Positions 4,109 to 39,975 are shown, numbered from the stretch's first letter. The stretch: 64,000 bases of DNA from Candidatus Termititenax persephonae (GCA_003864475.1 BGZO01000003.1:1789-65788), one strand, 5' to 3'. The notes: generated from the letters alone by a model not told the origin. A program made the numbers and translations.

Positions 4109-4133
4109 CCATATATAGTCTATGATGTGAATT

Positions 4134-8563: not shown

Positions 8564-8687
8564 AGGACGTGAAGGTTGTCGATTAGATTCAGTAGAGTAT
8601 GTTTTGTGTCCGGGTGGGAGGCTTAAATACAATGACTAATCATGATTGGTGATTTTCGAAGCCTTATAAAATTCATAAATCATTATA

Positions 8688-9665: not shown

Positions 9666-9982
9666 AATATTTTTGGACCGACACAATTTAAGACAGATTG
9701 CTGAAACGGCTTGAGAAAAAAAACAAGAACTATATAGCTTATCTAGAAATTAAGAGGGAATGTGATAAAGCCTGTCAAGAGGGTTTTGCGTGGCATCAAA
9801 ATGAAGTTAAGAATGATTCAGACTTATTAAAATGGGTTTTGAAAGAAAATTACTTGGACGACTAATTCCCAGAATTATTGACAGCTTTCTGATAGCTGGG
9901 ATGCAAATAGTCAGAGACTTGGTGTTGGATATTTTGTATAATAGCCTCAAGTAAACCTAGCCGCCTAGGGAGCATTTAATTA

Positions 9983-14368: not shown

Positions 14369-14393
14369 GATGCGGGTAGGGATATACGCGGGA
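14204..14393 (+). repeat. Copy A of a ~190-bp junction repeat (aminotransferase 3' end, stop, and the first 8 codons MRVGIYAG)
   Basis: Aligned by eye to 16266-16449. There is a perfect 38-nt core, tctaatctgaccgaggatgagattgagtttgtttgcgc, and overall identity of roughly 85 percent. Confidence 0.85.
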
Positions 14394-21256: not shown

Positions 21257-23203
21257 ATGAGTTTTGCCACACCAATATTATTTATTGTTTTCAATCGGCT
21301 GGACACGACGCGGCAGGTTTTTTCTGTCATTCGGCGGATTAAACCGAAATATTTGTATGTCGCTGCGGACGGAGCGCGTGCGGATAATGAGGGAGAAAAA
21401 CAAGCCGTGCAAGAAGTGCGCGATTATGTGTTGCAAAATATTGACTGGGCTTGCGAAACCAAGACTTTATTTCGCAATGAAAATCACGGCTCCGGACGCG
21501 GTGTGGCCGAGGCGATAACTTGGTTTTTTGCACAGGTCGAGCGGGGTATAGTTTTAGAGCATGATTGCCTGCCGTCTTTAAGTTTTTTTTCTTTTTGTGC
21601 GGAGCTTTTAGAAAGATATAAGAACGATAATAGAATTTATCATATTACCGGACATAATCCGCTGGGAAAAACAGAGACGGACGGCGCGAGTTATTATTTT
21701 GCCAGAGTGGAGCATTGCTGGGGTTTTGCGACTTGGCGGCGGGCTTGGCAGAAATACAGTTATGATATTCAGGGTTTGGACGACTTTATCCGGCAGAGAA
21801 AAATAACAAAAATATTCCGCCGCTCCTGCGACCAGAAATATTGGCTGGGGATTTTTCGCAAAATGGAGAAACATTGCTGGCAAACTTGGGATTATCAATG
21901 GACTTACACGATTTTTCAAAATGATGGCATTTGTATCAATCCTGCGGATAATCTGATTTCCAACATTGGTTTTGGGCAAGGCGCGGTGCATACTACTAAT
22001 TTAGCCTCGCCGTTTAATAACCAAAAGAGATACGAAATTACCGAGATTAAGCATCCATCCAAAGTGCAAGTAAATGAGCAGGCAGTCGAGGTTATCCAAA
22101 ATTTTTTGTTCGGCGTAGAGCCATTGTGGCGGAAGATAGTTTGCTGGCTACCGCGGAAAGCCCAAGGCTTATGCCGCAGACTTATCCAAGGGAACGGCAA
22201 GGTGATTTATTGGCTTTGGAAAGCTTTTATTTTTCCGCACCTTATTCTAAGGGAATTAAGAATTAGGGAACGTAAGGTAAGCTATGGACAAGAAAACCCA
22301 GACAAAACTTTTTATGTGATTGGCTGGGGAAAGTCTTGGGGCAGTTCCGGCTTGTTTTGTATGGTGCAAGCCACTTTCGCTTTGCTGGTTGACGCGGTGG
22401 AACGCGGGTTTGTCCCGGTGGTGGATTGGCAAAATTATCCCAGCCAGTATCTGCCGTCCAATTTGTTGCATAGAGAAAATGCTTGGGAATATTTTTTTGA
22501 ACAGCCAGGTGGGTATACCTTAGCAGATATTAGCAAAAGCAAGAATGTTATTTTAAGCCCGAAAGAATGTTTTAAGGCATATGGCAATTTTGCTGACATT
22601 AATATTGTTTATTACCGTAAATTGTTTAAGCAATATATTCGTTTTAACAAAGAGACTGCGGATTATCTAGCGGCGGAATATAAAGAGATTTTACAAGATA
22701 AAGGCAAGGTGTTGGGTGTGCTGTGCCGCGGTACTGATTACACTTTGAAAAAAACTGCCAGACACGCTATCCAGCCGGAAGTAACAGAGGTTATCAGAAG
22801 GGCTGCTTGGATTATGGCGGAGAGAAATTACCAATACATTTATTTGGCTACGGAAGACAAAAATAATTTTGAATTGTTTAAAGAGTATTTTGGTGCCAAA
22901 TTATTGGTCAATAAGCAAATTCGGTTTTCTCAGCAAGATTTGAGAGATGTGCGCTATATTTCAGAAATTGCTTTTTCTGCAAGGGCTGATATTAGAGGGG
23001 GTAAATATTTATTGGGACTACAGTATTTATCATCGCTTAATCTCTTGGCGCATTGTGCTGGCTTTGTCGGCGGCATCACTGCAGGCACATGGGGCGTACA
23101 TTTGTTGGCCACTGGTTTTGAATATGATTATGTTTATAATCTTGGCTCATATCCAGAAACATCTTGGCGTAGTCGGGTAAAAAGAATTCTAAGAATAATC
23201 TAA
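21257..23203 (+). CDS. Two-domain glycosyltransferase: N-terminal GNT-I/HlpA-like GT-A domain plus a C-terminal domain with a fucosyltransferase-superfamily-like RGxDY motif
   Basis: The N-terminus PILFIVFNRLDTTRQVFSVIRRIKPKYLYVAADGAR...GIVLEHDCLPS is paralogous to 7838. The C-terminal ~320 aa contain VLGVLCRGTDYTLKK and YIYLATEDKNN. Confidence 0.6.
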   Translation: MSFATPILFIVFNRLDTTRQVFSVIRRIKPKYLYVAADGARADNEGEKQAVQEVRDYVLQNIDWACETKTLFRNENHGSGRGVAEAITWFFAQVERGIVLEHDCLPSLSFFSFCAELLERYKNDNRIYHITGHNPLGKTETDGASYYFARVEHCWGFATWRRAWQKYSYDIQGLDDFIRQRKITKIFRRSCDQKYWLGIFRKMEKHCWQTWDYQWTYTIFQNDGICINPADNLISNIGFGQGAVHTTNLASPFNNQKRYEITEIKHPSKVQVNEQAVEVIQNFLFGVEPLWRKIVCWLPRKAQGLCRRLIQGNGKVIYWLWKAFIFPHLILRELRIRERKVSYGQENPDKTFYVIGWGKSWGSSGLFCMVQATFALLVDAVERGFVPVVDWQNYPSQYLPSNLLHRENAWEYFFEQPGGYTLADISKSKNVILSPKECFKAYGNFADINIVYYRKLFKQYIRFNKETADYLAAEYKEILQDKGKVLGVLCRGTDYTLKKTARHAIQPEVTEVIRRAAWIMAERNYQYIYLATEDKNNFELFKEYFGAKLLVNKQIRFSQQDLRDVRYISEIAFSARADIRGGKYLLGLQYLSSLNLLAHCAGFVGGITAGTWGVHLLATGFEYDYVYNLGSYPETSWRSRVKRILRII

Positions 23204-24121
23204 AGTTTTTTTCGTAAATAATCGTGCCTCGCGGTGATTGCGCCAGTTGAGGTAAGGAATATACAAGCCTAATTTCATTAGAATATAAAACCATAACCGT
23301 CGAAGTTTATTAGCTTTGTTTAAGAAATCACAATGCAAAAACGAACAGTCTTTAGCAATTAATTGTTTTAGGTTTTTAGCGTACATGAAATTATTGGCTC
23401 TTTGCTCAAAGCTTGCACCCTGTCCATAGGTGGGATACCCTTTTGATGTTGTATGCAGAGGATGGTTATATATTTTTTGTTGAAAATCTTTGCTCTTTAA
23501 CAAAAAACAATTATCTGTAATATAAAATCGTCCGACGTAAAAATTACCGATAATTTTGTTGGAACGCCACTCTTGACGATTATAATTGCGGACAGGATTG
23601 GCAATCAAGTAATCGGGATTTTGAGTGAGCAATTCACAGGCCTCTGGTATCCAGAGACCGTGTTTTGGATTTGGCAAAAAAACGTCAAGCATTAGATGCA
23701 ACACAAATTCAGTCTTAGCTAAATAAATGCCCGTAAGTGCGCCGAACAAATAATGCTGTCCTTGTCCCGGAAAATCCGGCTGGATTTCCAACTTTTCTGC
23801 TATTTCTGCTCTGTAATCGTCAACAAAATAAAACACATCCAATATACCTGCGTCAACTTTTTTCTGCGCGTATTTGCGGACTATCTCTGGGTGTTTAACA
23901 TTATTGATGATGAGTTGGCGGTAGGTAAATTTTATGCCGCAGTTTTTAATCATCTGGTCGAGATAGCTGGTTTTTAGCACGTAAGCCCAGTCTTTTTCCC
24001 AGCAGAGGGTTTGAAAAGTAATTGAGCGGGATGCGGCGGAATTGAGAAATGCCTTCTTTTTAGCTATCATGTTAGAAAATATTAACATAGAAGGAAGTTT
24101 TTTGAAAATTCTGCTCCTCAA
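23189..24121 (-). CDS. Hypothetical protein (only minus-strand gene within the 13-29 kb plus-strand block)
   Basis: A 310-aa ORF in an AT-rich segment, with no family recognised. Its start is uncertain (M1, M12 or M18) because the 5' end overlaps the divergent GT4 start region. Confidence 0.55.
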   Translation of the reverse strand: MRSRIFKKLPSMLIFSNMIAKKKAFLNSAASRSITFQTLCWEKDWAYVLKTSYLDQMIKNCGIKFTYRQLIINNVKHPEIVRKYAQKKVDAGILDVFYFVDDYRAEIAEKLEIQPDFPGQGQHYLFGALTGIYLAKTEFVLHLMLDVFLPNPKHGLWIPEACELLTQNPDYLIANPVRNYNRQEWRSNKIIGNFYVGRFYITDNCFLLKSKDFQQKIYNHPLHTTSKGYPTYGQGASFEQRANNFMYAKNLKQLIAKDCSFLHCDFLNKANKLRRLWFYILMKLGLYIPYLNWRNHREARLFTKKTLDYS

Positions 24122-25361: not shown

Positions 25362-26237
25362 GTGAGTTGTCTGGTCAGTGTCGTCCTCGGTTCTTATAAC
25401 CGCCGTAAGTTTTTGCCCCGTTGCCTCGACAGTGTGCGCCGGGAGTTGGCGGATGTGCCGCACGAGATTATCGTGGTGGACGGCGGCAGCACGGACGGGT
25501 CGCTCAGCTGGCTGGTCAAGCAGAAGGACATCCTGACCATAGTCCAGCACAACCGCGGCTCTTGGCGCGGGCGGCCAGTCCGGCGACGTTCTTGGGGCTA
25601 TTTTATGAATCTGGGATTTAAAGCGGCGCAGGGCAAGTATATCTGTATGCTTAGCGATGATTGCCTGGTGGTCCCCGGCGCGGTCAAGAAAGGCCTGGCG
25701 CTTTTTGAGCGGAAGCGGCGGGCGCGGCAGAAAATCGGTGCGCTGGCTTTTTATTGGCGCGACTGGCCAGTGGAAAATTTTTACGCCGTCTATGCTTTTG
25801 CGGGCGGGGTCTTAAATGTCAACCACGGCCTGTATCTGCGCGCGGCTCTGCAGGAGATTGGTTTTTTGGACGAAGAGACCTATCGGTTTTATGCGGGCGA
25901 TATTGATGTTTGTCTTCAACTTGCCGCCGCGGGATACAAAATAATACCTGCGGAAAATTCTTATATCGAGCATTACGCGCACGCTAATTTCCGCGCCCGT
26001 TTTGCCAATAACAAGCAAAATCAAGAGCGGGACAAGCGGGCGTTAATCAAGAAATGGAGTTTTAAGTACGGCACCAATCCTGAAAATTATGCCCGCCAGA
26101 CTTGGCCCAAAGATTTTCACGATTCTACGCGGACGATTCGTAAATTTTATTTATGGCATTTTTTGAACGGCTGGGAATATTTGCTCTGGGCTTATAAATT
26201 CTGCCGCAAAACTTTTGCGAAAGGTTCAGTAGGATGA
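25362..26237 (+). CDS. Family 2 glycosyltransferase
   Basis: LVSVVLGSYNRRKFLPRCLDSVRRELADVPHEIIVVDGGSTDGS...MLSDDC. GTG start. Confidence 0.8.
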   Translation: MSCLVSVVLGSYNRRKFLPRCLDSVRRELADVPHEIIVVDGGSTDGSLSWLVKQKDILTIVQHNRGSWRGRPVRRRSWGYFMNLGFKAAQGKYICMLSDDCLVVPGAVKKGLALFERKRRARQKIGALAFYWRDWPVENFYAVYAFAGGVLNVNHGLYLRAALQEIGFLDEETYRFYAGDIDVCLQLAAAGYKIIPAENSYIEHYAHANFRARFANNKQNQERDKRALIKKWSFKYGTNPENYARQTWPKDFHDSTRTIRKFYLWHFLNGWEYLLWAYKFCRKTFAKGSVG

Positions 26238-27586
26238 AAAATCGCAAGTGGTTGTTGGTTTTATGGTGTCTGGCTCTTTTGGCGTTTTTTCGTCTGGAAA
26301 TTTTCATCTCGCCGCTCGGACAAGATGAGTCAGTGTATGCCTATATGAGTCAGCAGGTCGGGCAGGGTGCGGTTTTGTACCGCGACGTTACCGACAATAA
26401 ACCGCCGGTGCTTTTTTGGCTGGCCGCCGCGGTAACGCGCTTGCCGGGCGTGAATCAAATCAACATCTTGATTTTAGATACTTTAATTGCCGCCTTGAGC
26501 GTTTGGCTATTCTACTTGCTGGCGTGTAAATTTACTGCAAATACTTTTTGGCTGACTACGGCCTTTATTATTTTTACCAACGCGCATCGTCTTTCCCAGG
26601 GCGGGTTTTTGACCGAACATTACGTGGTATTTTTTGTTTTGCTGGCTTGGTGGCTGTGGCTGCGCGACAAGCCGCTACCAGGGACGGATATTTTGGCGGG
26701 CGCATGTTTGGCCTTGGCCTTTTTGTCCAAACAGACTGCCTTGGCGACTTGCGCGGGCTGGGGTCTGTATATACTCCTGTATCTGCGCCGTGATTTTAAT
26801 CTTTTTTACCGCGGTCTGCGGGTCTTAGGTGGATTTCTGTCCGTACTGGCTTTAAGTTTGTTGTATCTGTATGCGCAGGGTGCGCTGGCTTATTTCTGGC
26901 AGGACTGTGTGGTTCATTTAATGCAGTACCGTGTGCAACAGGGACGCAATCCTTGGGGCGATTTTCTGGCAGTTATTGTGGATAATCTGGCCTCCGTGGC
27001 CTTGCTTTGGTTTATGCTGGCGCTGGCCTTATGCCAGCGCGGGACACAGAACACAAAATATAGAACCCTTATGTTGATTTGTTTATTTTTAGAATTTCTG
27101 GCTTTTACTGCGGGTAAGACTTTTTACGGACATCAGATTTTGCCGCTGGCTCCGGCGCTCGGTTTGCTTAGCGCTTTGTCTCTGCCTGAAAAATTTTATC
27201 TCAGATACGAAAAAGTTTTGTTAGCGCTTTTAGCGGTGTCTCTGTTGCTACAAACCTACTATACTTGGCGGGCTTTCAGGCAATTTCCTGACTTATTAGA
27301 TGATTATCGTGCGGCCAACTATATCGCACAAAACACCGCGCCGGAGGATTTTCTTTACGCGGCTTATGGTGATGCGCGTATCGCTTTCTTGTCCCGCCGT
27401 CGGCATTTTTATAAACGCGCGTATCTGGCACATGCCTATTCACCAGCGGAACAAATTTTTATGCAGAAAGAATTTGACCGATTGCGGCCGCTGTATTTGC
27501 TTAACGGCTGGCCGGCTTATGCTAATCCCGCCGCTTACCGTTTGGAAAAAGAGATTGGGCGGTATAAAATCTACAAACGCCAATGA
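26234..27586 (+). CDS. GT-C fold membrane glycosyltransferase (ArnT/PMT_2, GT39/83-like)
   Basis: The first loop is SPLGQDESVYAYMSQQVGQGAVLYRDVTDNKPPVLFWLAA, followed by about 10 hydrophobic segments. It overlaps its neighbours by 4 nt on both sides. Confidence 0.65.
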   Translation: MKNRKWLLVLWCLALLAFFRLEIFISPLGQDESVYAYMSQQVGQGAVLYRDVTDNKPPVLFWLAAAVTRLPGVNQINILILDTLIAALSVWLFYLLACKFTANTFWLTTAFIIFTNAHRLSQGGFLTEHYVVFFVLLAWWLWLRDKPLPGTDILAGACLALAFLSKQTALATCAGWGLYILLYLRRDFNLFYRGLRVLGGFLSVLALSLLYLYAQGALAYFWQDCVVHLMQYRVQQGRNPWGDFLAVIVDNLASVALLWFMLALALCQRGTQNTKYRTLMLICLFLEFLAFTAGKTFYGHQILPLAPALGLLSALSLPEKFYLRYEKVLLALLAVSLLLQTYYTWRAFRQFPDLLDDYRAANYIAQNTAPEDFLYAAYGDARIAFLSRRRHFYKRAYLAHAYSPAEQIFMQKEFDRLRPLYLLNGWPAYANPAAYRLEKEIGRYKIYKRQ

Positions 27587-28755
27587 AAGTCTGGTCAATC
27601 TTTTACGGTAACCTCTCGCTCAATCAAGGGCCGACGACGCATTTTACGGAGTTGACCAAATGCCTGACCAACGCCGGAGTTGAGGTAACCGCTTATGCGC
27701 CCGCGCTTGGCCGATACAGCGGACAAAATCAAAACTTCCCGCTGAAATATACTTGGACACTCAAGCTACCATTTGTCCGGGTAGTGGTCTATGACTTTTT
27801 ATTGGCCTTAAGATTGTTATTTACTTTTCCGAAGCCCGATATTTTTTATGTGCGGGTCGCTTATTTTTCTTTATTTACGCCGCTGTTGGCCAAAATTCTG
27901 CGCCGCAAATTGGTTTTGGAGATTAACGGTTTTGTCGTTGACGATGTTTTGTCTAAGGGCTGGCCTGCTCCCCTGCGCTGGGTCTCCATAAGTTGCGAAA
28001 AGTTTCTGCACAAAATTGCTGACGCGGCGATTTGCGTGTCCGCGACTATTAGCGAGGCCGTACAGCAATCTTTTGGCATCCCCCGGCGTAAACTGGTCGC
28101 GCTGGAAAACGGCGTGAATATTGAGCATTTTCGTCCGCTGGACAAGGCCAAGTGCCGGGCGGAGCTGGGTTTTGACAGCCAGATTAATTATATCGGCTAT
28201 GTCGGCTGTTTTACAGGCTGGGACGGGATTGAGCATATTGTTCACGCTTTGCCCGGGATACAGAAAACTTTTCCGCAGACCAAGGTTTTATTGGTCGGCG
28301 ACGGGGAACAAAGGAAATTCGTGGAGAGTGAAGTGCGCAGACTCAATTTGGCAAAAGAAGTTATTTTTACGGGCTATGTGCAGTATGCGGACTTGCCAAA
28401 ATATCTAAATGTTTTTACGGTGGCGGTCGCGCCCTACGGCGGCAGCGAGTCTATCCAGACGCGGAATAAAAAAGGCGGTCTGTCCTCGCTGAAAAGCAAA
28501 GAATATATCAGTTGCGGCTTGCCTGTGGTGGTGGCGGATATTTCCGGCGTGGCCTATCTCGCTGGTTTGGCGGGCTATGTCATCCCGCAGGGCGATAGGC
28601 AAAGTTTGACAGAAAAGGTTAAAATACTGCTGAGTAGCAAAAGTTTGCGCGAAAAGTTTGCCCGGGCAGGGCGTGAATACGCGGTCAAGAATTGTTCTTG
28701 GCAGAATGTCGCGGATAAAACAAAAGAAATATTGGCAGGAGTTCTAAAAAAATGA
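27583..28755 (+). CDS. GT-B fold glycosyltransferase (GT4 family)
   Basis: GYVGCFTGWDGIEHIVHALPGIQKTFPQTKVLLVGDGEQ...FTGYVQYADLPKYL...EYISCGLPVVVADISG. Confidence 0.8.
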   Translation: MKVWSIFYGNLSLNQGPTTHFTELTKCLTNAGVEVTAYAPALGRYSGQNQNFPLKYTWTLKLPFVRVVVYDFLLALRLLFTFPKPDIFYVRVAYFSLFTPLLAKILRRKLVLEINGFVVDDVLSKGWPAPLRWVSISCEKFLHKIADAAICVSATISEAVQQSFGIPRRKLVALENGVNIEHFRPLDKAKCRAELGFDSQINYIGYVGCFTGWDGIEHIVHALPGIQKTFPQTKVLLVGDGEQRKFVESEVRRLNLAKEVIFTGYVQYADLPKYLNVFTVAVAPYGGSESIQTRNKKGGLSSLKSKEYISCGLPVVVADISGVAYLAGLAGYVIPQGDRQSLTEKVKILLSSKSLREKFARAGREYAVKNCSWQNVADKTKEILAGVLKK

Positions 28756-29882
28756 CGGCGGATTTGGCGAGGCAAAATTTTACTTTATCTTTAATTATTC
28801 CTTGTTACAATGAGGAGAGGACTATCGCCGCCTGTCTCGAAAAAACGTGCAGTGTCGCGCAGGGGCAAAATTTTGCTTTGGAATTGATTGTGGTCGATGA
28901 TGCTTCGACTGATAACAGCCTGCGGGAATTGGCAAAAGTCGCACAAAAATATCCTAGGATTCGTGTCTTAAAACATCCGGTCAACCGCGGCAAAGGCGCG
29001 GCCTTGCGTACAGGCTTGGTGCAAGCGGTGGGTGATTTTGTCGGTATCCAAGATGCGGATGACGAGTACAATCCGCGCGAATACTTGACCTTGCTTCAAC
29101 CCTTGCTGAATAACCAAGCCGATGTGGTTTTCGGTTCGCGCTATCTGTGTCAGGACTCGCGTTATGTCTTGTACTTTTGGCACACTTGGATGAATAAATT
29201 TCTGACTTGGGTTTCTAATATGTTTACCAATCTGGATCTGACCGACATGGAAACCTGCTATAAATTATTTCGCCGGGCGGTTATCCAAAAAATTGCGCCG
29301 CAGTTGAAAGAAGAACGTTTCGGCTTTGAGCCGGAGATTACTGCCCGTGTCGCGCAGCTTGGCTGCCGTGTTTATGAATGCGCAATTTCCTACAATCCGC
29401 GTTCCTACGAGGAAGGCAAGAAAATCAATTGGCGGGACGGCATCCGGGCTTTGTACTGCATCCTGCATTACAGTGCGCATACCGCGCCCTTGCCGATGCA
29501 GATTATCTTGTACTTTTTTATTGGCGGGGTCTCGTTATTTGTCAATGTGTTTTGTTTTTACTTGCTGGGGCGTTTTGCTTGGCCCTTGCCTCACGCCATC
29601 GCGGGGTCTTTTGCCGCGTCGGCTTTGGCTAATTATTTGTTGTGCATCCATATCTTATTTCAACATAAGGCGCGTTGGAATACGCTGGGCGAGATTGTTG
29701 TTTATATTTTGGCGGTGGCGGTCATGGGTGTCATCGATTACGGTATTACTGGTGGTTTGCTGGCCTTGTTGTGGTCTCCACTGCGGAGCAAGTTTTGGGC
29801 GGCGGCGGTCGGCTTTGTTGGCAACTTTGTTTTGCGGCGCTGGGTTATTTTTCCTGAAAAGAAGAGGCCGATTTTAGTTTGA
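28752..29882 (+). CDS. Polyprenyl-phosphate glycosyltransferase-like GT2 (Dpm1/PpgS-like) fused to a C-terminal GtrA-like 4-TM domain
   Basis: LSLIIPCYNEERTI...LIVVDDASTDNS...IQDADDEYNP...GSRY...EEGKKINWRDG. The last ~125 aa, ILYFFIGGVSLFVNVFCFYLL...GFVGNFVLRRWVIF, are GtrA-family-like. Confidence 0.7.
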   Translation: MTADLARQNFTLSLIIPCYNEERTIAACLEKTCSVAQGQNFALELIVVDDASTDNSLRELAKVAQKYPRIRVLKHPVNRGKGAALRTGLVQAVGDFVGIQDADDEYNPREYLTLLQPLLNNQADVVFGSRYLCQDSRYVLYFWHTWMNKFLTWVSNMFTNLDLTDMETCYKLFRRAVIQKIAPQLKEERFGFEPEITARVAQLGCRVYECAISYNPRSYEEGKKINWRDGIRALYCILHYSAHTAPLPMQIILYFFIGGVSLFVNVFCFYLLGRFAWPLPHAIAGSFAASALANYLLCIHILFQHKARWNTLGEIVVYILAVAVMGVIDYGITGGLLALLWSPLRSKFWAAAVGFVGNFVLRRWVIFPEKKRPILV

Positions 29883-31509
29883 GTACATAAAAAAACAGAT
29901 TATTGGTGCCGTTGCTGTTCCAGTTGTTCGGCTCTAGTTCAATAGAGGAAGTGCTTATTTTTTCATACACCACTTCGTATTGCGCATAAGTATTTGTCCA
30001 CGGCGGTACGCTTAGTTTTTTCTCATTCCAGAAATCTTGGCAATATTGAAATTTCTGTTCGTCCAGCGGGGCATAAGTATCCAGAAAAGCAATGGTTTGA
30101 AAATCTGCCGGACGGTTCGGCAGATAATTAACACGGTCGGCGTATTTGTATTTTTGGCGGATATTTTTGAGCAGCGGCGCGTTAACATTGTCGTATTCGC
30201 CAATCAGATAGGGCTGATAGTGTTCGATTATTTTGACAAGTTCTTTTTCGTTCAGCGGAGTTTGCCGTCCGCGCAGGAAGCTGGGAAAGAAGAACAGAAA
30301 TATACCTGTATAGGCGGACAGTAGATACGCCAAGGTTTTGGTTTTTAGTTCGGGCAGGCTTTGGGCGATAACGTAGATAAACAGCGGCAGATAAACCAAA
30401 GCATTGCGCGTGGGAGTCAGGGTTAATTTTTGAGTAAAAACTAAACCGAGATAAGTCAGCAAACTGAAAACGACAAATAACCCTTCCGGTGTTTTGTAAC
30501 ATTTACGCAAGCCGAGAACAAAACCAGCCGTAAACAGGCCGCCGAAAATCCAGTAAAAAAAATTATCTGCCGCGACTGGGCTTAAAGTGTGCGTCAAAAC
30601 TAAAAACCCGTTGCGGAGCAGAAACCAAAAAATATTTTTATCCGGCGTGAATAAAAACTCGCCGTGCAGTCCGCTATTGTAAATTGCCGCGCCGGCGGTC
30701 GGCCTGACGAGCAGGATATAACACAGCGCGGGCAGACCAAAGGCTAAGTTTAGCAAACCACTGTAAATAAGTTTTTTGGCTTCTGGATAAGAGAAACGTT
30801 TAAGCCAAAAATTGACTAAATAATACGCGGGCAGTAAAAAAAATAGTTGATAATGTGCATAAACAAATAAAGTTGTCAGCCCGGCGGAAGTCAGCCAATG
30901 CTGGCGAAAAAAATTTTCCTGCCGGCTGTGCTGCAACAGCAGCAATAAGCCCGCCGCCGCCAGACAGCCGATAGCGTAGCTGTAGGATTGTTTGGCGAAA
31001 ATAATGTTTTCTAGAGACAAGGCGCCAATGAGAACGCCGAGCAGTAAGGCGGTGTGGTTGTTTTTTTTTAAAATAAAGCACAGCAATAAAATGGTCAGCA
31101 GGCTAAAGACACAAGACGGCAAACGTCCCATAAAAAGCAGAGTGTTGTAGTTTTGCTGGTCGTTGATTAGAAACGGTGTGATTAAAAATTGTAGCGGCGC
31201 ATTGCTGTTGGTCAGCGGGACAATCAGAAAACGGGCAAGATAAAAGGTTGCGTCAAAAATAAAGCGGGTCTGCGGATTTTCGTAAATATTTTTGATTAAG
31301 GTTTTTTGTCGGGAATGATACGCCGCGTTGAGCGGGTTGTCGATGATGTCCAGCAATTCTTGGCGATAGTCCGGGTGTTTGGCGCGCAGAATATCGATAA
31401 TAGTTATGGCATCGTCTAAGTGGACAAAATGCGTCCCCAAATCTGCCAAGCGCACGGCACAAGCCAGAAGGAGAATTAAAAGCAAACAGACTTTTTTTAA
31501 TTTACCCAT
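29845..31509 (-). CDS. Large polytopic membrane protein with C-terminal soluble domain (paralogue of 32474-34147); putative lipid-carrier-dependent glycosyltransferase, family not recognised
   Basis: A 554-aa protein with a signal/TM N-terminus, then GTHFVHLDD and a ~90-aa loop, about 11 hydrophobic segments and a C-terminal ~140-aa domain ending NGTNNLFFYVLKL. It is the last gene of a three-gene minus-strand operon with a GtrB-like GT2. Confidence 0.55.
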   Translation of the reverse strand: MGKLKKVCLLLILLLACAVRLADLGTHFVHLDDAITIIDILRAKHPDYRQELLDIIDNPLNAAYHSRQKTLIKNIYENPQTRFIFDATFYLARFLIVPLTNSNAPLQFLITPFLINDQQNYNTLLFMGRLPSCVFSLLTILLLCFILKKNNHTALLLGVLIGALSLENIIFAKQSYSYAIGCLAAAGLLLLLQHSRQENFFRQHWLTSAGLTTLFVYAHYQLFFLLPAYYLVNFWLKRFSYPEAKKLIYSGLLNLAFGLPALCYILLVRPTAGAAIYNSGLHGEFLFTPDKNIFWFLLRNGFLVLTHTLSPVAADNFFYWIFGGLFTAGFVLGLRKCYKTPEGLFVVFSLLTYLGLVFTQKLTLTPTRNALVYLPLFIYVIAQSLPELKTKTLAYLLSAYTGIFLFFFPSFLRGRQTPLNEKELVKIIEHYQPYLIGEYDNVNAPLLKNIRQKYKYADRVNYLPNRPADFQTIAFLDTYAPLDEQKFQYCQDFWNEKKLSVPPWTNTYAQYEVVYEKISTSSIELEPNNWNSNGTNNLFFYVLKLKSASSFQEK

Positions 31510-31517
31510 GGGCAGAA

Positions 31518-32474
31518 TTATTTATTTAATAATTTTTCGATAATATATCTTGGCCGCTGTTTGGTTTCCAGATAAATCTTGCCAATATATTCGCCAATGA
31601 CCCCGATAGAAAAAATAATCAAGCCGCCGATAGCCCAAAGCGAAACTGCTAAACTAGCCCAGCCGACTATGGTATGTCCAGAGAAATAACGGTAGATAGA
31701 CCAGACAATCATGGCCAAGCTGACCAAAAGCAACAATATGCCGAGTAAGGTAATCAGACGGATAGGTTTAATAGATAGAGACGTGATGCCTTCGAGCGCA
31801 AAATTCAGCATTTTGTAGAACGGATATTTGCTTGTGCCTGCCAGGCGTTTGGCACGCGTGTAATACTCTACGCCGGTTTTATACCCCAGCAGGGGAATAA
31901 TCCCGCGCAAGAAAAGATTTACTTCGCCATACTCTGCCAGCGCGTCTAAGGCTCGTCTGCCCATTAGACGAAAGTCCGCGTGATTATAAATGGTCTGGAC
32001 CCCCAGCAGGCTCATAAGTTTGTAAAAAGCCTGCGCGGTTATTTTTTTGAAGAGACCGTCTGTTTGGCGGTTATTGCGCACGCCGTAAACTATTTCACAG
32101 CCAGCTAGGAATTGCCGAACCATGCCGTCGATAACAGTGATGTCATCCTGCATATCGGCATCAATAGAAATAACCGCGTCGCAGGAGTCTTTGACGGTCA
32201 ATAGCCCGCAGAGCAAAGCGTTTTGGTGGCCGCGGTTTTTACTTAGTTTGATTCCGCTAAAAATTTGCGGACAACGGCGATGCTGTTCGGCAATCAATTC
32301 CCAGGTTTTGTCTTGTGAGCCGTCGTCGACAAAAACAACCTTAGATTTTTTCGAGACTAGCCGCGCGGACTGCAGAGCGCGGATTTTCTGCGCCAATTTT
32401 ACTGCGGTTTGCGGAAAAATTTCCTCTTCATTGTAGCAAGGAACGACAAGAGCTAGAGTAAGCATATTTGGCAT
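31518..32474 (-). CDS. Polyprenyl-phosphate glycosyltransferase (GtrB/ArnC-like GT2 with two C-terminal TM helices)
   Basis: LALVVPCYNEEEIF...VVFVDDGSQDKTWELI...KLSKNRGHQNALLCGL...ISIDADMQDD, plus two C-terminal hydrophobic helices. Confidence 0.8.
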   Translation of the reverse strand: MPNMLTLALVVPCYNEEEIFPQTAVKLAQKIRALQSARLVSKKSKVVFVDDGSQDKTWELIAEQHRRCPQIFSGIKLSKNRGHQNALLCGLLTVKDSCDAVISIDADMQDDITVIDGMVRQFLAGCEIVYGVRNNRQTDGLFKKITAQAFYKLMSLLGVQTIYNHADFRLMGRRALDALAEYGEVNLFLRGIIPLLGYKTGVEYYTRAKRLAGTSKYPFYKMLNFALEGITSLSIKPIRLITLLGILLLLVSLAMIVWSIYRYFSGHTIVGWASLAVSLWAIGGLIIFSIGVIGEYIGKIYLETKQRPRYIIEKLLNK

Positions 32475-34147
32475 TATAACTGAAGAATGTAGAAAAATAA
32501 ATTATTCGTACCGTTGGTGTTCCAATAATTCGGTTCGTGTTCGATATTGGTAGTGCTGATTTTCTCGTAAATTACTTTATATTGATTATACGGTGTTTCC
32601 CAGCGCTGATTGGTTCCAGCGTTCCAAATTTGCTGGGAGATATTGAAATGCGTCTCATTGAGTTCTTCCCACGTGCTGTAAAATAAGACTGTTTTATAGT
32701 TACGCGTTGGCTGATTTAGAAAAATATTATGGTCGCCGTCAACGTAATTGTATTGCCGGCGCACCTGCGGGAACATCGCCAGATGCAGAGAGTGTTCATA
32801 GCCCGCAATTAAATTCGGCTGATAGGTCTCAATAATCTTCAGCAATTCTTTTTCGTTAATCGGGTCGCGCCTGTCCTGAACAAATCCGGGGAAGAAGTAT
32901 AAAAAAATTCCCGTATAGACGAGCAGCAACAGATAGATAATGCTGTCCTTTAATTTTAATTCGGAGATGCTTTGGGCGATGGGATAAATGAAAAGCGGCA
33001 GGTAAACCAAGGATTGGCGGGTCGGGGTCATGGCCAGTTGCTGAATAGCAATCAACGCCAAATAAATGCCAAAGCAAAGTGTTAAGTAGAGAAATTCCGG
33101 CTGTCTGCGGATTTTGCCAAGCCCGCGCCAAAATGCCGCAAAGAACAATAGGCCAAACAGCCAGTAAAGAAGTTGGTCCGCGGTAACTGGGCTGAGGGTG
33201 TGCGTGATTACCAAAAAACTATTTCTGATAAAAAACCAAATGGGATAAAACAAAATATTTTGGCCGCTAGGCGTAAATAAAAATTCGCCGAATTTGCCTA
33301 TAACATAACGCCCAGACTCGACTTGGGCGCCGTGAATGAACAGCAGGAACAATAAAGTGGGCAGGCAGAGCAGAAAACTGACCGCACAGCTTTGCTTCAC
33401 TTTGAGGCTTTCCGCCGGATTATGGCGTTTTAGCCAAAAATTGGCCAAGTAATAGGCAGGCAAAAGAAACGCCACTTGATAGTGGGTGTAAGCGAGGACG
33501 GCGGCTAACACGCCGGAAGGCAGCCAGTATTTTTGGAAAAATTTATCTTCCTGACTGCGCTGAAACAAAAGTAGCAGGGTAGCCGAAGCCAGACAGCCGA
33601 AAGCGTAAGCGGGCGCAAATTTGGCTTGGATAATGCTCTCCAGCGACAGTGCGCAAATTAACATTCCGCCTAATGCGCCCGCGGTATTTGTTTTGCGGCG
33701 CAGAGTCAAAAAAATCAAACAGACGGTCAGCACCCCAAAAATAAAAGACGGCAGACGGCCCATCAATAAATTTAAGCGATAGCTATAGTTTGGCGAAGTA
33801 ATCAAGGTAAACAAGGTAGGCTGGATAGGGGCAATGTTAGAATCCAAAGGCAGAATCATAAATCTGGACAGGTACACCCCGGCCTCGAAAATAAATCTGG
33901 AGCGAGGATTGTCATATATTTTACGGATAAGTTTTTTTTGCCTGTCGTCATGATGCGGTCTGGCGGGGTCGTAAAGAGAGGTTAATAATTCTTGGCGAAA
34001 GCGCGGCTCCTGAGTACGGAAAACATCCGCGAACATAAAAACATCGTCATAGTGGGCGAAATGTGTGCTTAAATCGACACCCCGCGCGAAAAAAGCCAAA
34101 GCAAATATGAGCAGAAAACCGAGATGGCGCAGATATTTGGGCGGCAT
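32474..34147 (-). CDS. Large polytopic membrane protein with C-terminal soluble domain (paralogue of 29845-31509)
   Basis: A 557-aa protein with STHFAHYDD and the same loop, TM and C-terminal architecture, ending NGTNNLFFYILQL. Its stop shares nucleotide 32474 with the start of the GtrB-like gene. Confidence 0.55.
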   Translation of the reverse strand: MPPKYLRHLGFLLIFALAFFARGVDLSTHFAHYDDVFMFADVFRTQEPRFRQELLTSLYDPARPHHDDRQKKLIRKIYDNPRSRFIFEAGVYLSRFMILPLDSNIAPIQPTLFTLITSPNYSYRLNLLMGRLPSFIFGVLTVCLIFLTLRRKTNTAGALGGMLICALSLESIIQAKFAPAYAFGCLASATLLLLFQRSQEDKFFQKYWLPSGVLAAVLAYTHYQVAFLLPAYYLANFWLKRHNPAESLKVKQSCAVSFLLCLPTLLFLLFIHGAQVESGRYVIGKFGEFLFTPSGQNILFYPIWFFIRNSFLVITHTLSPVTADQLLYWLFGLLFFAAFWRGLGKIRRQPEFLYLTLCFGIYLALIAIQQLAMTPTRQSLVYLPLFIYPIAQSISELKLKDSIIYLLLLVYTGIFLYFFPGFVQDRRDPINEKELLKIIETYQPNLIAGYEHSLHLAMFPQVRRQYNYVDGDHNIFLNQPTRNYKTVLFYSTWEELNETHFNISQQIWNAGTNQRWETPYNQYKVIYEKISTTNIEHEPNYWNTNGTNNLFFYILQL

Positions 34148-35680: not shown

Positions 35681-35717
35681 ATGGTTTTGCCGCGCGATTT
35701 GTAGTAAGATTTTGGCA

Positions 35718-36656
35718 ATGACTGGACAAAAAATATCTTTTGTTATTCCTTGTTATAACTCGGAGCATACGTTGGAGGCGGTAGTGGCCGATATTTTTAC
35801 GGCGATGCGCGGACACGGCTATGCCTTTGAGATTATTTTGGTTAATGATGCTTCCCAAGATAATGTTTGGCACAAGATTGAGGCCTTGGCCGCCCAGCAG
35901 GACAATATTATCGGTGTTTGTCTGGCGAAAAATTTTGGCGAAAATGCCGCGCTGATGGCGGGTTATGCGCAGGTCAGCGGCGATATTGTGATTTCGCTGG
36001 ACGATGACGGGCAAAATCCGCCGTCCGAGGCGTTCACTTTGCTTAATAAATTGAACGAAGGCTACGACGTAGTGTTTTCCGCTTATGCCAAGAAACAGCA
36101 TGGTATTTTCCGCAATATCGGCAGCCGGATTAATGATTTCATGGCGGAGATTTTGATAGGCAAGCCGCGTAATATTCAGGTCTACAGCTATAATGCCGCG
36201 CGCCGTTACATCATTGACGAGATTGTGAAATATAGCGGGCCGTATCCTTATATTACGGGCTTGTTTTTCCGCACGACCCGCAATGTGGCGAATGTAGTGG
36301 TCGAACATCGCAAACGCGCTCATGGCAAATCCGGCTATTCATTTGGTAAATTGGTTGGTCTCTGGCTGAACGGTTTTACAGCCTTTTCGGTCAAGCCTCT
36401 GCGCTTGGCTTCGCTCTTGGGCTTGCTTTTTTCTGCTTTGGGCGTTTTTTATATGGTTTTTTTGCTGTGGGAACGCCTGCACAATCCGCAAATGGTCATG
36501 GGCTACACTTCACTGATGGCGGTAATTATTTTTGTCGGCGGTGCGCTGATGGCAATGCTGGGACTTATCGGCGAGTATATCGGGCGGATTTATATTTCAA
36601 TCAATAACGCGCCGCAGTATGTTGTCAAGGCCATAAGCCGCCAGACAAATCAATAA
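35718..36656 (+). CDS. Polyprenyl-phosphate glycosyltransferase (ArnC/GtrB-like GT2 with two C-terminal TM helices)
   Basis: ISFVIPCYNSEHTL...IILVNDASQDN...LAKNFGENAALMAGY...ISLDDDGQNPP, then two C-terminal hydrophobic helices. Confidence 0.8.
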   Translation: MTGQKISFVIPCYNSEHTLEAVVADIFTAMRGHGYAFEIILVNDASQDNVWHKIEALAAQQDNIIGVCLAKNFGENAALMAGYAQVSGDIVISLDDDGQNPPSEAFTLLNKLNEGYDVVFSAYAKKQHGIFRNIGSRINDFMAEILIGKPRNIQVYSYNAARRYIIDEIVKYSGPYPYITGLFFRTTRNVANVVVEHRKRAHGKSGYSFGKLVGLWLNGFTAFSVKPLRLASLLGLLFSALGVFYMVFLLWERLHNPQMVMGYTSLMAVIIFVGGALMAMLGLIGEYIGRIYISINNAPQYVVKAISRQTNQ

Positions 36657-37793
36657 CGGTTCGATAGGAAAGCGGTAGACCAGCGACCCGGCAAAAACTA
36701 AGTGAATCGCGTTGAGCTGTACGATATAGAGCAGAGGATAGGTGAGCAGGACATAGTTTTTAGCTTGGCGAAAAATCCACAGCGTGTAAGCGGCGAGCAA
36801 GACCAGCGGCACGAAGCTACAGAAAATCACGGTGCTGGTCAGTGGATTGGTATATTGCGGGGCGCGCGGATACGGTCGCCAGAAGATATACATTTTTTTG
36901 ACTGCCAAGATTAAAACTTGCCGGGGATTTTCGCGGACAAATTTTTTCACTTCATCTTTGTACCAAGTCTGGCGTTTGTCCGGCGGCAGAGAGTTCATTA
37001 TCTTGTAGATTTCTTCCAGCGGCGGGGCCTCTTCGCCCCAAATGCCGCCGCCGGTCTTATTCAGAGGATTCAACCCGAGATAAAGGTTGTGGTCGGCATT
37101 GCCGCCCGTAAATGACCATTCGCCGCCGCGGCAATAATTATAAGTTCCCCAGCTCCCGATAAAACAAAGAACCAGCAGGCCAACCATGACGATTTTTGGC
37201 CAAGGAATTTTACGGAACAGAAAGAACGCGACTGCCAGCACAACATAAGGCAGAAACACCGTGCGCACCCAAGAGGTAAACCCAAACACCAGTCCCAGCA
37301 GGACGGCGGACGGCCAATCGCGTTTTTGGTCAAAAATTATGGAACAATAGATTGACAAAACCACCCAAAAAACAAACCAATGCTCCATGGACAACTGCGT
37401 CGCATAAAAAATCAGCCACGGATAAAATGCGCCAAGACCAGCCGCCCAGCGTCCTGCGGTCTCGGAGTTAAAAATCGCTGTTGTGATTTTGTACAAAAAA
37501 TAACAAAGCAAAAGCGCCACAACAGACTGGACTAATATTGACGGATAAATATAGCTGGTTTGACCGAAAATTTTAACTAAGGCCGCCAAGAATAAAATAA
37601 ACCCTGGCGGTTTGGCCATGCCGTAGCCTAGTCCTGCGGCCAAAGCCTCGGCGGTCGGAGCATACTGGCTGTGATAATCCGGTAATTGCTGATGCTGCCA
37701 ATACAGGCCTGCCAGGGCGCGCAAGAAAAAACCGCCGAGTAAAATAAACAGCCAATAATACTTATGATTTACCAATTGTTTGAAAAAATTCAT
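36597..37793 (-). CDS. GT-C fold membrane glycosyltransferase (PMT_2/ArnT-like)
   Basis: Multi-TM protein with the early loop ...GYGMAKPPGFILFLAAL. The internal start MNFFKQ (37793) is preferred. The 3' end overlaps the convergent GT2 gene by 60 nt. Confidence 0.55.
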   Translation of the reverse strand: MNFFKQLVNHKYYWLFILLGGFFLRALAGLYWQHQQLPDYHSQYAPTAEALAAGLGYGMAKPPGFILFLAALVKIFGQTSYIYPSILVQSVVALLLCYFLYKITTAIFNSETAGRWAAGLGAFYPWLIFYATQLSMEHWFVFWVVLSIYCSIIFDQKRDWPSAVLLGLVFGFTSWVRTVFLPYVVLAVAFFLFRKIPWPKIVMVGLLVLCFIGSWGTYNYCRGGEWSFTGGNADHNLYLGLNPLNKTGGGIWGEEAPPLEEIYKIMNSLPPDKRQTWYKDEVKKFVRENPRQVLILAVKKMYIFWRPYPRAPQYTNPLTSTVIFCSFVPLVLLAAYTLWIFRQAKNYVLLTYPLLYIVQLNAIHLVFAGSLVYRFPIEPLLICLAAYGLDNILRRVID

Positions 37794-37821
37794 GACCTTA
37801 AAACTATAGCATAAAACTAAC

Positions 37822-39120
37822 TTATTGGGGCAGAGCTGCGTCCTGTTCTGTAAAACCAAAATATTGCGCGGTATTTATAATCGCGCAGGCGGTTAATAAC
37901 GCAAAAAATGGTGCGCGAAAACGACTGTCGCCCATAATCGCACTTGTTGCCGCCAGATAAGCGCTCAAAAGAATAAGCGCAAGCTGTGCCAAGTGGAAAG
38001 TTTTCTGGTAATTAGCGATTAAGCTAAAAATAAAAATCAAGTAAACAAAAGCTAAATAAACCGCGTACAAGCCGGAAACAACATAGGCTAAAGTACTCGG
38101 CAAGATACTAAAAAGATAAGTCTGCGACGGGCCAAACAGCAGGACGAACAAACCACTGAAACTGCACCAAAGATAAGCGGGAAAGTTTGCCCGGATAAAG
38201 TTCCAGCCGTATTTTTTCTGTAAGACACTTAATTGCGCGGCGTTCAGGTTTGCGGCCTGCGGATATTGCCGGGTAAACAACTGGTCGTGGTAAGTCTGCG
38301 CCGCTTTTTCGTCTAGGCTACTTTGTGCCATCGTGATAATCGGCGCGTAATATTTTTGCATATTGTAATTGGCAATGGTCGAGAAAATAAAAACTCCCGA
38401 GTGTGTGTAATTACGGTATGACCAACCGCCGAACATGACGACAAAGCAAATTAAAAATAACAGCGGGCCGAACAAGGAAATCTTTCTGAAGCTGAAAAAT
38501 AAAAATAATAGAACAATAACCAACAGATTGAAGTACATTAAAATCGGGCGTGTCCAAAGCGCATAATTAAGCGCCAGACTAAAAAGCAGAAAGTCGCTGG
38601 GCCGCTGGCCTTGCGTGCAGAAGCGGATTAGAAAATAAAAAGCCAGAATCAAGCAAAATTCAAACAAAGTTTCGGGAGCGATATTCCAAGAGTGAATATA
38701 AGAGGTTAGATTGGGCAGCAAGGCCGCTCCGCCCAGTGCGGCAAGGCTAGGCGTTACGCGCAGCAGGATTAACGCGCGGTACAGCAAATACAATCCCCAC
38801 GCCGCCAATAAAATTTGTCCCAGCACAACGGCGGTATTATTTTGACCAAGCGCATAAATCGCCGCCAAGAATAACGGATAGCCGGGCGTGCGGTTGTAAT
38901 CCGGCGTAGCGCCGTCGATGCTGAAAAAAGCGTGCAACCGGAGGTTTTGTGCGGTTTGCACGTAATCAGCCGTGTCATGACTGATAATCGGTTGCCCGTG
39001 ATTTAGCGTAAAAAACAAAAGTACCGAGACGCAACAATAGGCCGCGCAAATATAATAAATCTTATTTTTATTGAGAAATTTGAGCATAAATTTATTTACT
39101 GCCAACGAAATTAAATTCAC
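37822..39120 (-). CDS. GT-C fold membrane glycosyltransferase (PMT_2/ArnT-like)
   Basis: A 432-aa multi-TM protein with the first loop HDTADYVQTAQNL...YNRTPGYPLFLAAIYAL. The start is GTG 39120 or the internal ATG 39087. Confidence 0.55.
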   Translation of the reverse strand: MNLISLAVNKFMLKFLNKNKIYYICAAYCCVSVLLFFTLNHGQPIISHDTADYVQTAQNLRLHAFFSIDGATPDYNRTPGYPLFLAAIYALGQNNTAVVLGQILLAAWGLYLLYRALILLRVTPSLAALGGAALLPNLTSYIHSWNIAPETLFEFCLILAFYFLIRFCTQGQRPSDFLLFSLALNYALWTRPILMYFNLLVIVLLFLFFSFRKISLFGPLLFLICFVVMFGGWSYRNYTHSGVFIFSTIANYNMQKYYAPIITMAQSSLDEKAAQTYHDQLFTRQYPQAANLNAAQLSVLQKKYGWNFIRANFPAYLWCSFSGLFVLLFGPSQTYLFSILPSTLAYVVSGLYAVYLAFVYLIFIFSLIANYQKTFHLAQLALILLSAYLAATSAIMGDSRFRAPFFALLTACAIINTAQYFGFTEQDAALPQ

Positions 39121-39234: not shown

Positions 39235-39975
39235 ATGTGTGTTATAATTTTTTACTTTAATGGGGGGAATATTTTGAAGCTCAGTGTCATCATACCGATT
39301 TACAATGAATACAATAATATTGACGCAGTTATTCAGGCTATCAAGGCAGTGGCTTTGCCGGAGCAGGTTGACGCGTTGGAATTGATTTTGGTGGACGATG
39401 GGTCGCATGATGGCACGGCACAAAAATTGGCAAGCTACAAAAATGATAAAATGATAATCGTCCATTCCTCGCGCTTTAATTTTGGCAAAGGCATGGCGAC
39501 ACGTATCGGCTTGACTTATGTAACTGGCGACATAGTTTTGATTCAGGATGCGGATTTGGAATACGACCCCAATGATTATCCTGTTCTGCTCAAGCCGATT
39601 ATTGAGGATAATGCCGCGATAGTTTACGGGTCGCGGTTTCTCAAAAAATCTCGGCCCCGCGGTATGGCTTTTCAGAATTGGCTGGCCAATCAATTGTTAA
39701 AAATTGCCGCCAATATTTTGTATGGGGCAAGGTTGACAGACGAAGCCACCGCCTACAAGATGTTTAAGACGGAAGCGATTAAGGCGCTCAATCTCAAAGC
39801 CAAGCGTTTTGAACTTTGCCCGGAACTGACGGCCAAGGCTTTGAAAAAAGGCTACAAAATCGTGGAAGTGCCTATTAACTACAAAGGACGCACGGTGGAA
39901 GAGGGCAAAAAGATAAAATGGCATGACGGTTTTGCGGCGATTTGGACCTTGTGCAAGTACCGATTTGTCGATTAA
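39235..39975 (+). CDS. Dpm1/PpgS-like GT2 (soluble; paralogue of the catalytic domain of 28752-29882)
   Basis: [16 protein letters not shown]...[12 protein letters not shown]...[13 protein letters not shown]...GSRF...[11 protein letters not shown]. The true start may be TTG 39274. Confidence 0.75.

Follow-up and report, generated by a model that had tools for sequence, protein, structure and literature searches.

The 64,000-nucleotide (nt) stretch of DNA studied here, hereafter the window, belongs to the genome of Candidatus Termititenax persephonae, which we take to be a Margulisbacterium living as a termite-gut ectosymbiont. Its minus strand carries a three-gene operon that we examined as a candidate periplasmic glycosylation module. 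In order along that strand, the operon encodes a 557-amino-acid (aa) membrane protein, a 318-aa glycosyltransferase of family 2 (GT2), and a 554-aa membrane protein; the two large proteins match NO2_0186 and NO2_0184, respectively, with 100% identity. A plus-strand gene for a 376-aa fusion of a GT2 and a GtrA/DPMS domain converges on the operon (Table 1), its tail overlapping that of the 554-aa gene by 38 nt (29845-29882).

The stop codon of the 557-aa gene and the start codon of the GT2 gene have nt 32474 in common, in a TAATG overlap, and the spacer between the GT2 gene and the start of the 554-aa gene is 8 nt long (31510-31517, TTCTGCCC). Together, this 1-nt overlap and 8-nt gap indicate that the operon genes are co-translated and that the 318-aa GT2 is translationally coupled to both large genes. 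Our list of open reading frames (ORFs) and our reading of the junctions reproduced every ORF, coordinate, and junction given in a preliminary description of this DNA. Promoter and terminator scans between 28.5 and 34.7 kb performed no better than on shuffled sequence, and the transcript ends were not definable.

The two large membrane proteins belong to an uncharacterized family

The 557-aa and 554-aa proteins align over their full length with 47% identity (E = 2e-161), which bears out their earlier description as paralogs. Both carry the motif HF(A/V)H(Y/L)DD after the first transmembrane (TM) helix and a C-terminal NGTNNLFFY, as had been claimed. In a neighbor-joining tree, the 557-aa protein groups with the relative P0002 (92% bootstrap) and the 554-aa protein takes a basal position within the Termititenax-type clade (76%). 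This grouping rejects a recent tandem duplication of the two genes; judging by this tree, the copies are old paralogs.

Searches with hmmscan (E ≤ 1) gave little purchase on the identity of these proteins. The 557-aa protein matches PMT_2 (PF13231) over residues 130-265, scoring 37.9 bits where the gathering threshold is 26.1; the alignment covers model positions 24-158 and falls on the TM2-TM7 core. No Pfam model matched the 554-aa protein at this threshold, and no NCBIfam model, those of ArnT included, matched either protein. The PMT (GT39, PF02366), YfhO/PgfM, and GtrC-type families have models in the Pfam/NCBIfam libraries, and these too gave no match to the large proteins. The marginal PMT_2 match of the 557-aa copy is therefore the only family-level assignment obtained for the transferases. 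The preliminary description could not place them in ArnT, PMT, GtrC, or any other named family, and neither could we place them in a characterized one: when E. coli ArnT was compared by hhalign with a 109-sequence profile of the family, the probability was 2%. The same profile gave 0.8% for the window's own PMT_2 protein (26234-27586). We also considered a 581-aa PMT_2-like protein (14322-16067) as a possible third paralog and rejected it at an hhalign probability of 7%.

A word-indexed search returned only 11 close relatives. An exhaustive profile search returned 558 clusters at 50% identity (E ≤ 1e-3), 233 of them at E ≤ 1e-30; the members of the latter are mostly 540-630 aa long and align end to end, including the C-terminal domain. 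Four of 43 diverse relatives reach PMT_2 (E ≤ 0.01) and the other 39, the 554-aa paralog among them, do not; two touch a TMEM260-like model weakly. The relatives are named "hypothetical protein" or, at the most specific, carry the automated label "ArnT-like glycosyltransferase"; no functional name occurs among them. The term "unrecognized family" used previously is thus partly apt: no NCBIfam model and no characterized family was matched, but the 557-aa protein passes PMT_2 and some relatives are already labeled as ArnT-like. Overall, the two proteins are members of an uncharacterized, sparsely distributed sequence family inside the glycosyltransferase C (GT-C) superfamily.

Predicted fold, topology, and conserved residues

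AlphaFold modeled the 554-aa protein, from the 109-sequence alignment, with a predicted local distance difference test score (pLDDT) of 94.8 and a predicted template modeling score (pTM) of 0.93; the 557-aa protein, from an 11-sequence alignment, reached a pLDDT of 76.9. When these models were compared with the PDB using Foldseek, the top 24 matches of the 554-aa protein were all GT-C enzymes, as were nearly all of the top 23 matches of the 557-aa protein, with probability ~1.0. The GT-C matches of both models comprise STT3, ALG9, ALG12, AftA, Pmt4, ArnT, PglB, AglB, EmbA, AftB, and ALG3; after this block came unrelated membrane proteins with probability below 0.2. Template modeling (TM) scores to the solved GT-C enzymes range from 0.40 to 0.51, with a best E value of ~1e-3; for the 554-aa model, the highest TM score is ~0.45. 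The PMT_2 match of the 557-aa copy, to a model of the GT-C clan, provides a link by sequence that is independent of the structures. According to the models, then, both large proteins have a GT-C fold without a close solved relative, and the likeness to GT-C enzymes first suspected from an acidic loop extends to the predicted structures.

To derive the topology, we combined hydropathy with the secondary structure of the AlphaFold models and with the positive-inside rule, applied to 109 sequences. Lysine plus arginine amount to 0.20-0.26 per residue in six predicted inside loops versus 0-0.08 in the external loops EL1, EL3, and EL4. The predicted arrangement has 11 TM helices with the N terminus inside, and it places four parts in the periplasm, namely, the first loop (residues 28-122), a flexible loop spanning 272-325, a short one spanning 368-378, and the alpha/beta domain at the C terminus (425-557). 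The earlier outline of about 11 TM segments and a soluble C-terminal domain (~130-140 aa, alpha/beta) agrees with both the AlphaFold secondary structure and the charge distribution, and the positive-inside pattern likewise predicts a periplasmic location for the HxDD motif, which had been assigned to an external first loop.

Six residues are invariant in the 109 sequences (D34, Y123, R131, Y223, P375, and R377), and two more are nearly so (D35, 94%; T376, 92%). Of the 38 positions that reach at least 85% conservation, every one except G342 and G393 falls in an outside loop or in the outer half of a helix, which is the pattern expected of a periplasm-facing GT-C active site at the membrane surface. 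Both paralogs retain D34, D35, Y123, R131, Y223, P375, and R377. By analogy with ArnT, PglB, and PMT, the aspartate right after TM1 would be catalytic and an arginine would contact the donor phosphate. The C-terminal domain of the 557-aa protein includes the conserved residues R426, G546, and N548. Beside near-invariant R426, the 554-aa copy has a threonine in place of D428, a residue found in 95% of the family, the 557-aa protein included; this substitution may represent a functional difference between the paralogs. The first loop of ~90 aa, described before as conserved, is so within the Termititenax-type clade, but the wider family keeps only its ends (HxDD and AP.Q, at ~106-109).

The 318-aa synthase and the question of a flippase

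Several features uphold the description of the middle gene as GtrB-like. Its product matches Pfam PF00535 and has a C-terminal TM pair. The best NCBIfam match is PgfS (1.6e-62, full length), at 211.5 bits versus an equivalog cutoff of 500; ArnC is also matched over the full length (4e-37), at 127.9 bits versus a cutoff of 529, and E. coli ArnC aligns end to end with 27% identity (E = 2e-30). The protein has a GEYIG motif and a DADMQ motif, the latter corresponding to DADLQD, the metal-binding motif described for GtrB (PMC5526996). By its architecture, it is probably a polyprenyl-phosphate sugar synthase of the GtrB/ArnC/PgfS type. Since all GT2 matches fall under the equivalog cutoffs, the transferred sugar is not inferable from them. 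As noted previously, the synthase gene adjoins the GT-C genes: it overlaps one and abuts the other.

It had also been proposed that all three Gtr functions are present at this locus, the convergent 376-aa fusion supplying the GtrA-type flippase. The synthase and the GT-C transferases of this proposal stand; the flippase is less clear, since the GtrA module is DPMS-like and no separate flippase gene was found in the island. The domain in question, PF04138, is named "GtrA/DPMS, transmembrane domain" in Pfam, and the best NCBIfam matches of the fusion are AglJ, PpgS, and dolichyl-phosphate hexose transferase. PfDPMS, which consists of a GT-A domain and a TM domain, offers a parallel layout (PMC5526996). 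From these matches, the fusion is probably a DPMS-type lipid-sugar synthase with its own four-TM domain, and a flippase role is putative.

Orthologs of the GT2 part of the fusion, 66-70% identical, are found in three related loci (L002, 12993-13850; L003, 8890-9711; L017, ~13895-14653). Where the gene was called (L002 and L003), its product is 273-285 aa long, and the alignments end near residue 260; a GtrA/PF04138 domain gave no match in any other homologous locus. A search of the surrounding island for a stand-alone small flippase ORF of the GtrA or SMR type yielded only spurious overlapping ORFs. With orthologs free of the GtrA domain and no stand-alone flippase ORF, the presence of all three Gtr functions is not established. 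Among the related loci compared, the fusion of a GtrA/DPMS domain to a GT2 is confined to T. persephonae.

Distribution and gene neighborhoods of the family

Loci related to the operon occur in Ca. Termititenax aidoneus, other Margulisbacteria, Omnitrophota, Bacteriovoracales/Bdellovibrionota, Bacteroidota (Aquirufa and Flavobacteriales), a metagenome-assembled genome of Burkholderiales, FCPU426, and metagenome contigs. To take a census of neighbors, the window's GT2s were searched by tblastn against all loci, ~33 of which are nonredundant and have limited flanks, with E. coli ArnC (27% identity) as a control for the sensitivity of the search. A GtrB-type or DPM1/DPMS-type synthase lies within 3 kb of the family gene in ~8 of the 33 loci, and in 4 of those it is of the GtrB type. 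About 22 of the ~33 have no GtrB-type, DPM1/DPMS-type, or ~250-aa GT2 within the available flanks. The answer therefore falls between the two extremes considered in the preliminary description: a GtrB-like gene does not always adjoin the homologs, nor are the homologs never linked to a polyprenyl-phosphate GT2 gene, and the earlier proposal is not refuted on this count. In L003, the combination of GT-C and GtrB-type genes is kept, with a 9-nt gap and a GT2 that is 84% identical to its ortholog in the window. Orthologs of the window's DPM1-like GT2 (39235-39975) are 62-82% identical in related loci. The linkage of GT-C and synthase genes characterizes the Termititenax-type clade together with its closest relatives.

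A soluble GT2 of ~250 aa abuts the family gene in several loci (Table 1). Its copies are 49-69% identical to one another, even in cases in which the adjoining GT-C genes are only ~28-35% identical. This protein has no ortholog within the window and matches generically GT2 only; it may be a conserved functional partner of the family gene.

Pairs of paralogs recur in the window, L010, L023, and L031. Outside the window, the paired genes are convergent, divergent, or in tandem, and the L023 pair, at 25% identity, points to repeated or ancient duplication as a feature of the family. Most homologous loci, including the close relatives L002, L003, and L017, have a single copy within 8-10 kb on either side.

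A model for the operon and its alternatives

Starting from the gene order and coupling, the GT-C fold of the models, the GtrB-type architecture of the middle gene product, and the placement of conserved residues on the predicted outer face, we consider that the operon is probably a periplasmic glycosylation module dependent on a lipid-linked sugar. We infer from the adjacent, coupled GtrB-type synthase that the donor of the GT-C pair is linked to polyprenyl phosphate. In this model, the 318-aa GT2 works at the cytoplasmic face of the inner membrane, where it would take a sugar from a nucleotide sugar and load it onto polyprenyl (undecaprenyl) phosphate; a flippase would then carry the lipid-linked sugar across that membrane. 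At the periplasmic face, each GT-C paralog would transfer the sugar to an acceptor made by the ~40-kb glycan island in which the operon is embedded. The HxDD aspartates after TM1 would provide the catalytic base or bind a metal, as they do in other enzymes of the GT-C_A type, and the invariant R131 and R377 would hold the donor phosphate. Most likely, the two paralogs would serve different acceptor positions or linkages; the two specificities sharing one donor, as proposed earlier, are likewise putative. Systems made of a synthase, a flippase, and a GT-C enzyme have published precedent (PMC11127046), as does a single synthase serving two GT-C enzymes, namely, PgfS with PgfM1 and PgfM2 (PMC11092751).

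Several observations weigh against this model. The ~22 of 33 loci without a recognizable lipid-sugar synthase imply that the family needs no dedicated neighbor of this kind, and the island holds three other candidate donor synthases (at 28752, 35712, and 39235) but no stand-alone small flippase. The models resemble solved GT-C enzymes only moderately (TM score, 0.40-0.46), the family profiles found no relative among the PDB sequences, and hhalign does not detect E. coli ArnT with the profile. The outward-facing active site depends on a topology that is itself predicted, and the 554-aa copy departs from the family at D428.

The alternatives differ in how the paralogs would work or where their donor would come from. 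The paralogs could act sequentially on one acceptor, possibly a protein, with one attaching the first sugar and the other extending or decorating it. In Streptococcus mutans, glycosylation is abolished when PgfM1 is lost, and without PgfM2 only the mobility of glycoproteins changes (PMC11092751). The window operon has the same gene content as that system, a single GT-A synthase with a pair of GT-C enzymes (PMC11092751), and the best NCBIfam match of its synthase is PgfS, at ~211 bits over the full length. The age of the paralogs, which have diverged to 47% identity, and the deviation of the 554-aa copy at near-invariant D428 would also suit such a division. However, the PgfS score is far under the 500-bit equivalog cutoff, and PgfM1 and PgfM2 are YfhO-domain proteins, whereas the window proteins give no YfhO match. 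The surroundings consist of sugar-nucleotide genes and polysaccharide-type glycosyltransferase genes, among which no Ser/Thr-rich protein stood out as a target. We regard sequential action as unlikely, although it fares best among the alternatives.

Less probable still, the donor of the GT-C pair could be made by another enzyme than the 318-aa GT2, that is, by the product of 35712-36656, 39235-39975, or 28752-29882 or by one encoded elsewhere in the genome. The island offers four candidate synthases alongside at least six proteins that are GT-C-like or multipass, and the DPM1-like GT2 and the soluble ~250-aa GT2, not a GtrB-type enzyme, are the commonest neighbors in related loci. Against this stand the translational coupling of the 318-aa GT2 between both paralogs and the retention of the GT-C and GtrB-type pair in L003. 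An obligate heterodimer catalyzing one reaction, in the manner of Pmt1-Pmt2 or EmbA-EmbB, would account for co-transcription of the two genes around the donor synthase in one tightly coupled operon and for the recurrence of paired paralogs in four loci, and such heterodimers are among the structural matches (6p25, Pmt1-Pmt2; 7bvc, EmbA-EmbB), but it seems improbable given that most loci, L002, L003, and L017 included, are single copy over the flanks covered and the enzyme can thus work without a paralogous partner. We favor two paralogs that draw on the adjacent synthase and differ in acceptor position or linkage.

The surrounding glycan island

The first 40 kb of the window form one large glycan island rich in sugar-nucleotide and glycosyltransferase genes. 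Besides several enzymes of the GT2 and GT4 families, it encodes methyltransferases, a cytidylyltransferase, FdtA, and two DegT aminotransferases. Within ~25 kb there are six proteins that are GT-C-like or multipass, together with four GT2s resembling polyprenyl-phosphate-sugar synthases, an unusual density that suggests a surface glycan with many periplasmic additions. No Wzx, Wzy, or ABC exporter was recognized within the window.

The segment 34233-36656 encodes an FdtA-like 3,4-ketoisomerase, a DegT aminotransferase, and, directly after it, an ArnC-like GT2 with a TM pair (ArnC, 1.8e-58; motifs DDDGQ and GEYIG). By analogy with 4-amino-4-deoxy-L-arabinose (Ara4N) in the Arn pathway, this segment may be a pathway that loads a 3-amino-3,6-dideoxyhexose onto a lipid carrier. 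Directly after the island, 40217-48158 encodes a bacterial alpha-2-macroglobulin (1901 aa) directly upstream of a PBP1C-type protein (747 aa), the two genes overlapping by 8 nt. The pairing of alpha-2-macroglobulin with PBP1C fits a diderm envelope with a periplasm.

The guanine-plus-cytosine (GC) content is 0.33-0.36 in 2001-10000 and 14001-16000 versus 0.45-0.50 elsewhere in the island, which suggests that the glycan locus contains modules of mosaic or lateral origin. A gene for an AAA_14/DUF4143 ATPase (10962-12266) lies in the island at a boundary between low and higher GC. Two ORFs in the island have no Pfam match: one of 648 aa (21257-23203), which has no NCBIfam match either, and one of 310 aa on the minus strand (23189-24121). 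The latter overlaps the TTG start of a GT4 gene at 24042, and the start of one or the other gene may have been miscalled.

Table 1. Features of the operon, its surroundings, and related loci (coordinates in nt of the window; L numbers denote related loci, with their own coordinates)
Feature	Location	Strand	Evidence
557-aa membrane glycosyltransferase of predicted GT-C fold, NO2_0186, operon gene 1	32474-34147	-	ORF, Pfam PMT_2, AlphaFold/Foldseek
HFAHYDD, residues 29-35 of 557-aa protein, start of first periplasmic loop; proposed catalytic pair D34-D35	34043-34063	-	
PTR, residues 375-377 of 557-aa protein, short periplasmic loop TM9-TM10; R377 candidate donor-phosphate ligand	33017-33025	-	
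C-terminal alpha/beta domain (~133 aa) of 557-aa protein, predicted periplasmic, ending NGTNNLFFYILQL	32477-32875	-	
318-aa probable polyprenyl-phosphate glycosyl synthase, GtrB/ArnC/PgfS type, GT2 with two C-terminal TM helices	31518-32474	-	PF00535, NCBIfam
DADMQ motif of 318-aa GT2	32148-32162	-	
GEYIG motif of 318-aa GT2	31581-31595	-	
554-aa membrane glycosyltransferase of predicted GT-C fold, NO2_0184, paralog, last operon gene	29845-31509	-	AlphaFold/Foldseek
HFVHLDD, residues 27-33 of 554-aa protein	31411-31431	-	
PTR, residues 366-368 of 554-aa protein	30406-30414	-	
C-terminal alpha/beta domain of 554-aa protein, predicted periplasmic	29848-30267	-	
376-aa fusion of GT2 and GtrA/DPMS TM domain, converging on operon	28752-29882	+	PF00535 + PF04138
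GT2 domain of fusion	28788-29294	+	PF00535, 6.9e-35
Complete GtrA/DPMS domain of fusion	29511-29852	+	PF04138, 2e-11
Further GT-C-like/multipass membrane proteins in island	14322-16067, 26234-27586, 36597-37859, 37822-39120		
ArnC-like, synthase-like GT2, next to FdtA/DegT	35712-36656		
DPM1/AglJ-like, synthase-like GT2	39235-39975		
GtrB-type GT2, full length with TM pair, within 3 kb of family gene	window, L003, L013, L017		
DPM1/DPMS-type GT2 within 3 kb of family gene	L002, L003, L004, L008, L017, L019/L036		
Conserved soluble ~250-aa GT2 abutting family gene	L001 (2658-3410), L002 (9807-10565), L004 (9767-10522), L023 (11710-12480)/L024 (2588-3358)		
Paired family genes, L010	3728-5317; 5452-6897	+; -	
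Paired family genes, L023	7036-8763; 10001-11713	-; +	
Paired family genes, L031	8001-11413		

Implications

GT-C decoration of surface glycans outside the cytoplasm gives rise to antigenic and adhesive diversity. Among the sources and names examined, the family occurs only in uncultured or poorly studied lineages, and neither Pfam nor NCBIfam has a model dedicated to it. A dedicated model, together with one biochemical characterization, would improve the annotation of cell-envelope glycan loci in candidate phyla, and a study of the family might clarify how Termititenax ectosymbionts attach to their hosts. New glycosyltransferase families are still founded on this kind of evidence, GT136 in 2024 being an example. 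A more far-reaching scenario, to which we give little credence at present, is that the 554/557-aa proteins found a new GT-C family at the CAZy level, with the C-terminal domain as a new acceptor-recognition module. In most lineages, the family would then have no dedicated synthase and would use a shared or unusual lipid-linked donor, and the Termititenax pair would build a surface glycan or glycosylate surface proteins for host attachment. The findings do not challenge the current understanding of such systems; they are useful but will not surprise specialists, because many GT-C clades are still unnamed.

Comparison with known systems

One close parallel is the classical three-component system, O-antigen glucosylation by GtrA-GtrB-GtrC in Shigella and Salmonella (PMC11127046). 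Both systems combine a GT2 synthase that has a C-terminal TM pair and a DADxQ motif with GT-C transferase(s) whose active site faces the periplasm (a prediction in our case), and both are encoded within a surface-glycan locus. In contrast, the window transferases match no GtrC-type Pfam model, and there are two paralogous transferases instead of one. A stand-alone GtrA is replaced here by a GtrA-like domain fused to another GT2 on the opposite strand. Moreover, the window locus belongs to a Margulisbacterium and is no prophage cassette.

The ArnC-ArnT-ArnE/F pathway, which serves lipid A modification with aminoarabinose, resembles the operon in its synthase, ArnC, which aligns with the 318-aa GT2 as described above. 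ArnT (GT83; PDB 5ezm and 5f15) is close to the window proteins in size (~550 aa), overall fold (TM score, 0.43-0.46), and possession of a periplasmic C-terminal domain, the latter two as predicted for the window proteins. Nevertheless, there is no detectable sequence relationship by hhalign or the NCBIfam ArnT models, ArnT has 13 TM helices versus the 11 predicted here, the window motifs differ (HxDD and PTR), and the window locus has no ArnE/F-type flippase. The family also departs from the PMT_2 and TMEM260-like families of the GT-C clan in having its own conserved C-terminal domain.

The Pgf system of S. mutans, which O-glycosylates proteins (PgfS, PgfM1, PgfE, and PgfM2; PMC11092751), likewise joins a GtrB-like synthase and two GT-C enzymes in one cluster, with an acidic catalytic motif in an extracytoplasmic loop, as we propose here. 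It differs in the YfhO domain of PgfM1 and PgfM2, which the window proteins lack, and in its epimerase, absent from the window operon; the match to PgfS is under the equivalog threshold, and a protein acceptor is not indicated in the window.

Finally, ORF12 of Citrobacter youngae (GT136), part of a three-component system for pentofuranose transfer, was compared by its description (PMC11127046). Like the window family, it was recognized from its gene context and its predicted fold; it resembles no existing glycosyltransferase family in sequence and carries an extra beta-rich periplasmic domain after TM11 (PMC11127046). Unlike in the window, its donor is formed from phosphoribosyl pyrophosphate (PRPP) by a phosphoribosyl synthase rather than by a GtrB-type GT2, its flippase is of the MATE type, and it has a carbohydrate-binding module (CBM) domain. 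Overall, the operon follows the same logic as the three-component systems Gtr, Arn, Pgf, and GT136, and the enzyme family that carries it out in Termititenax is an uncharacterized one.

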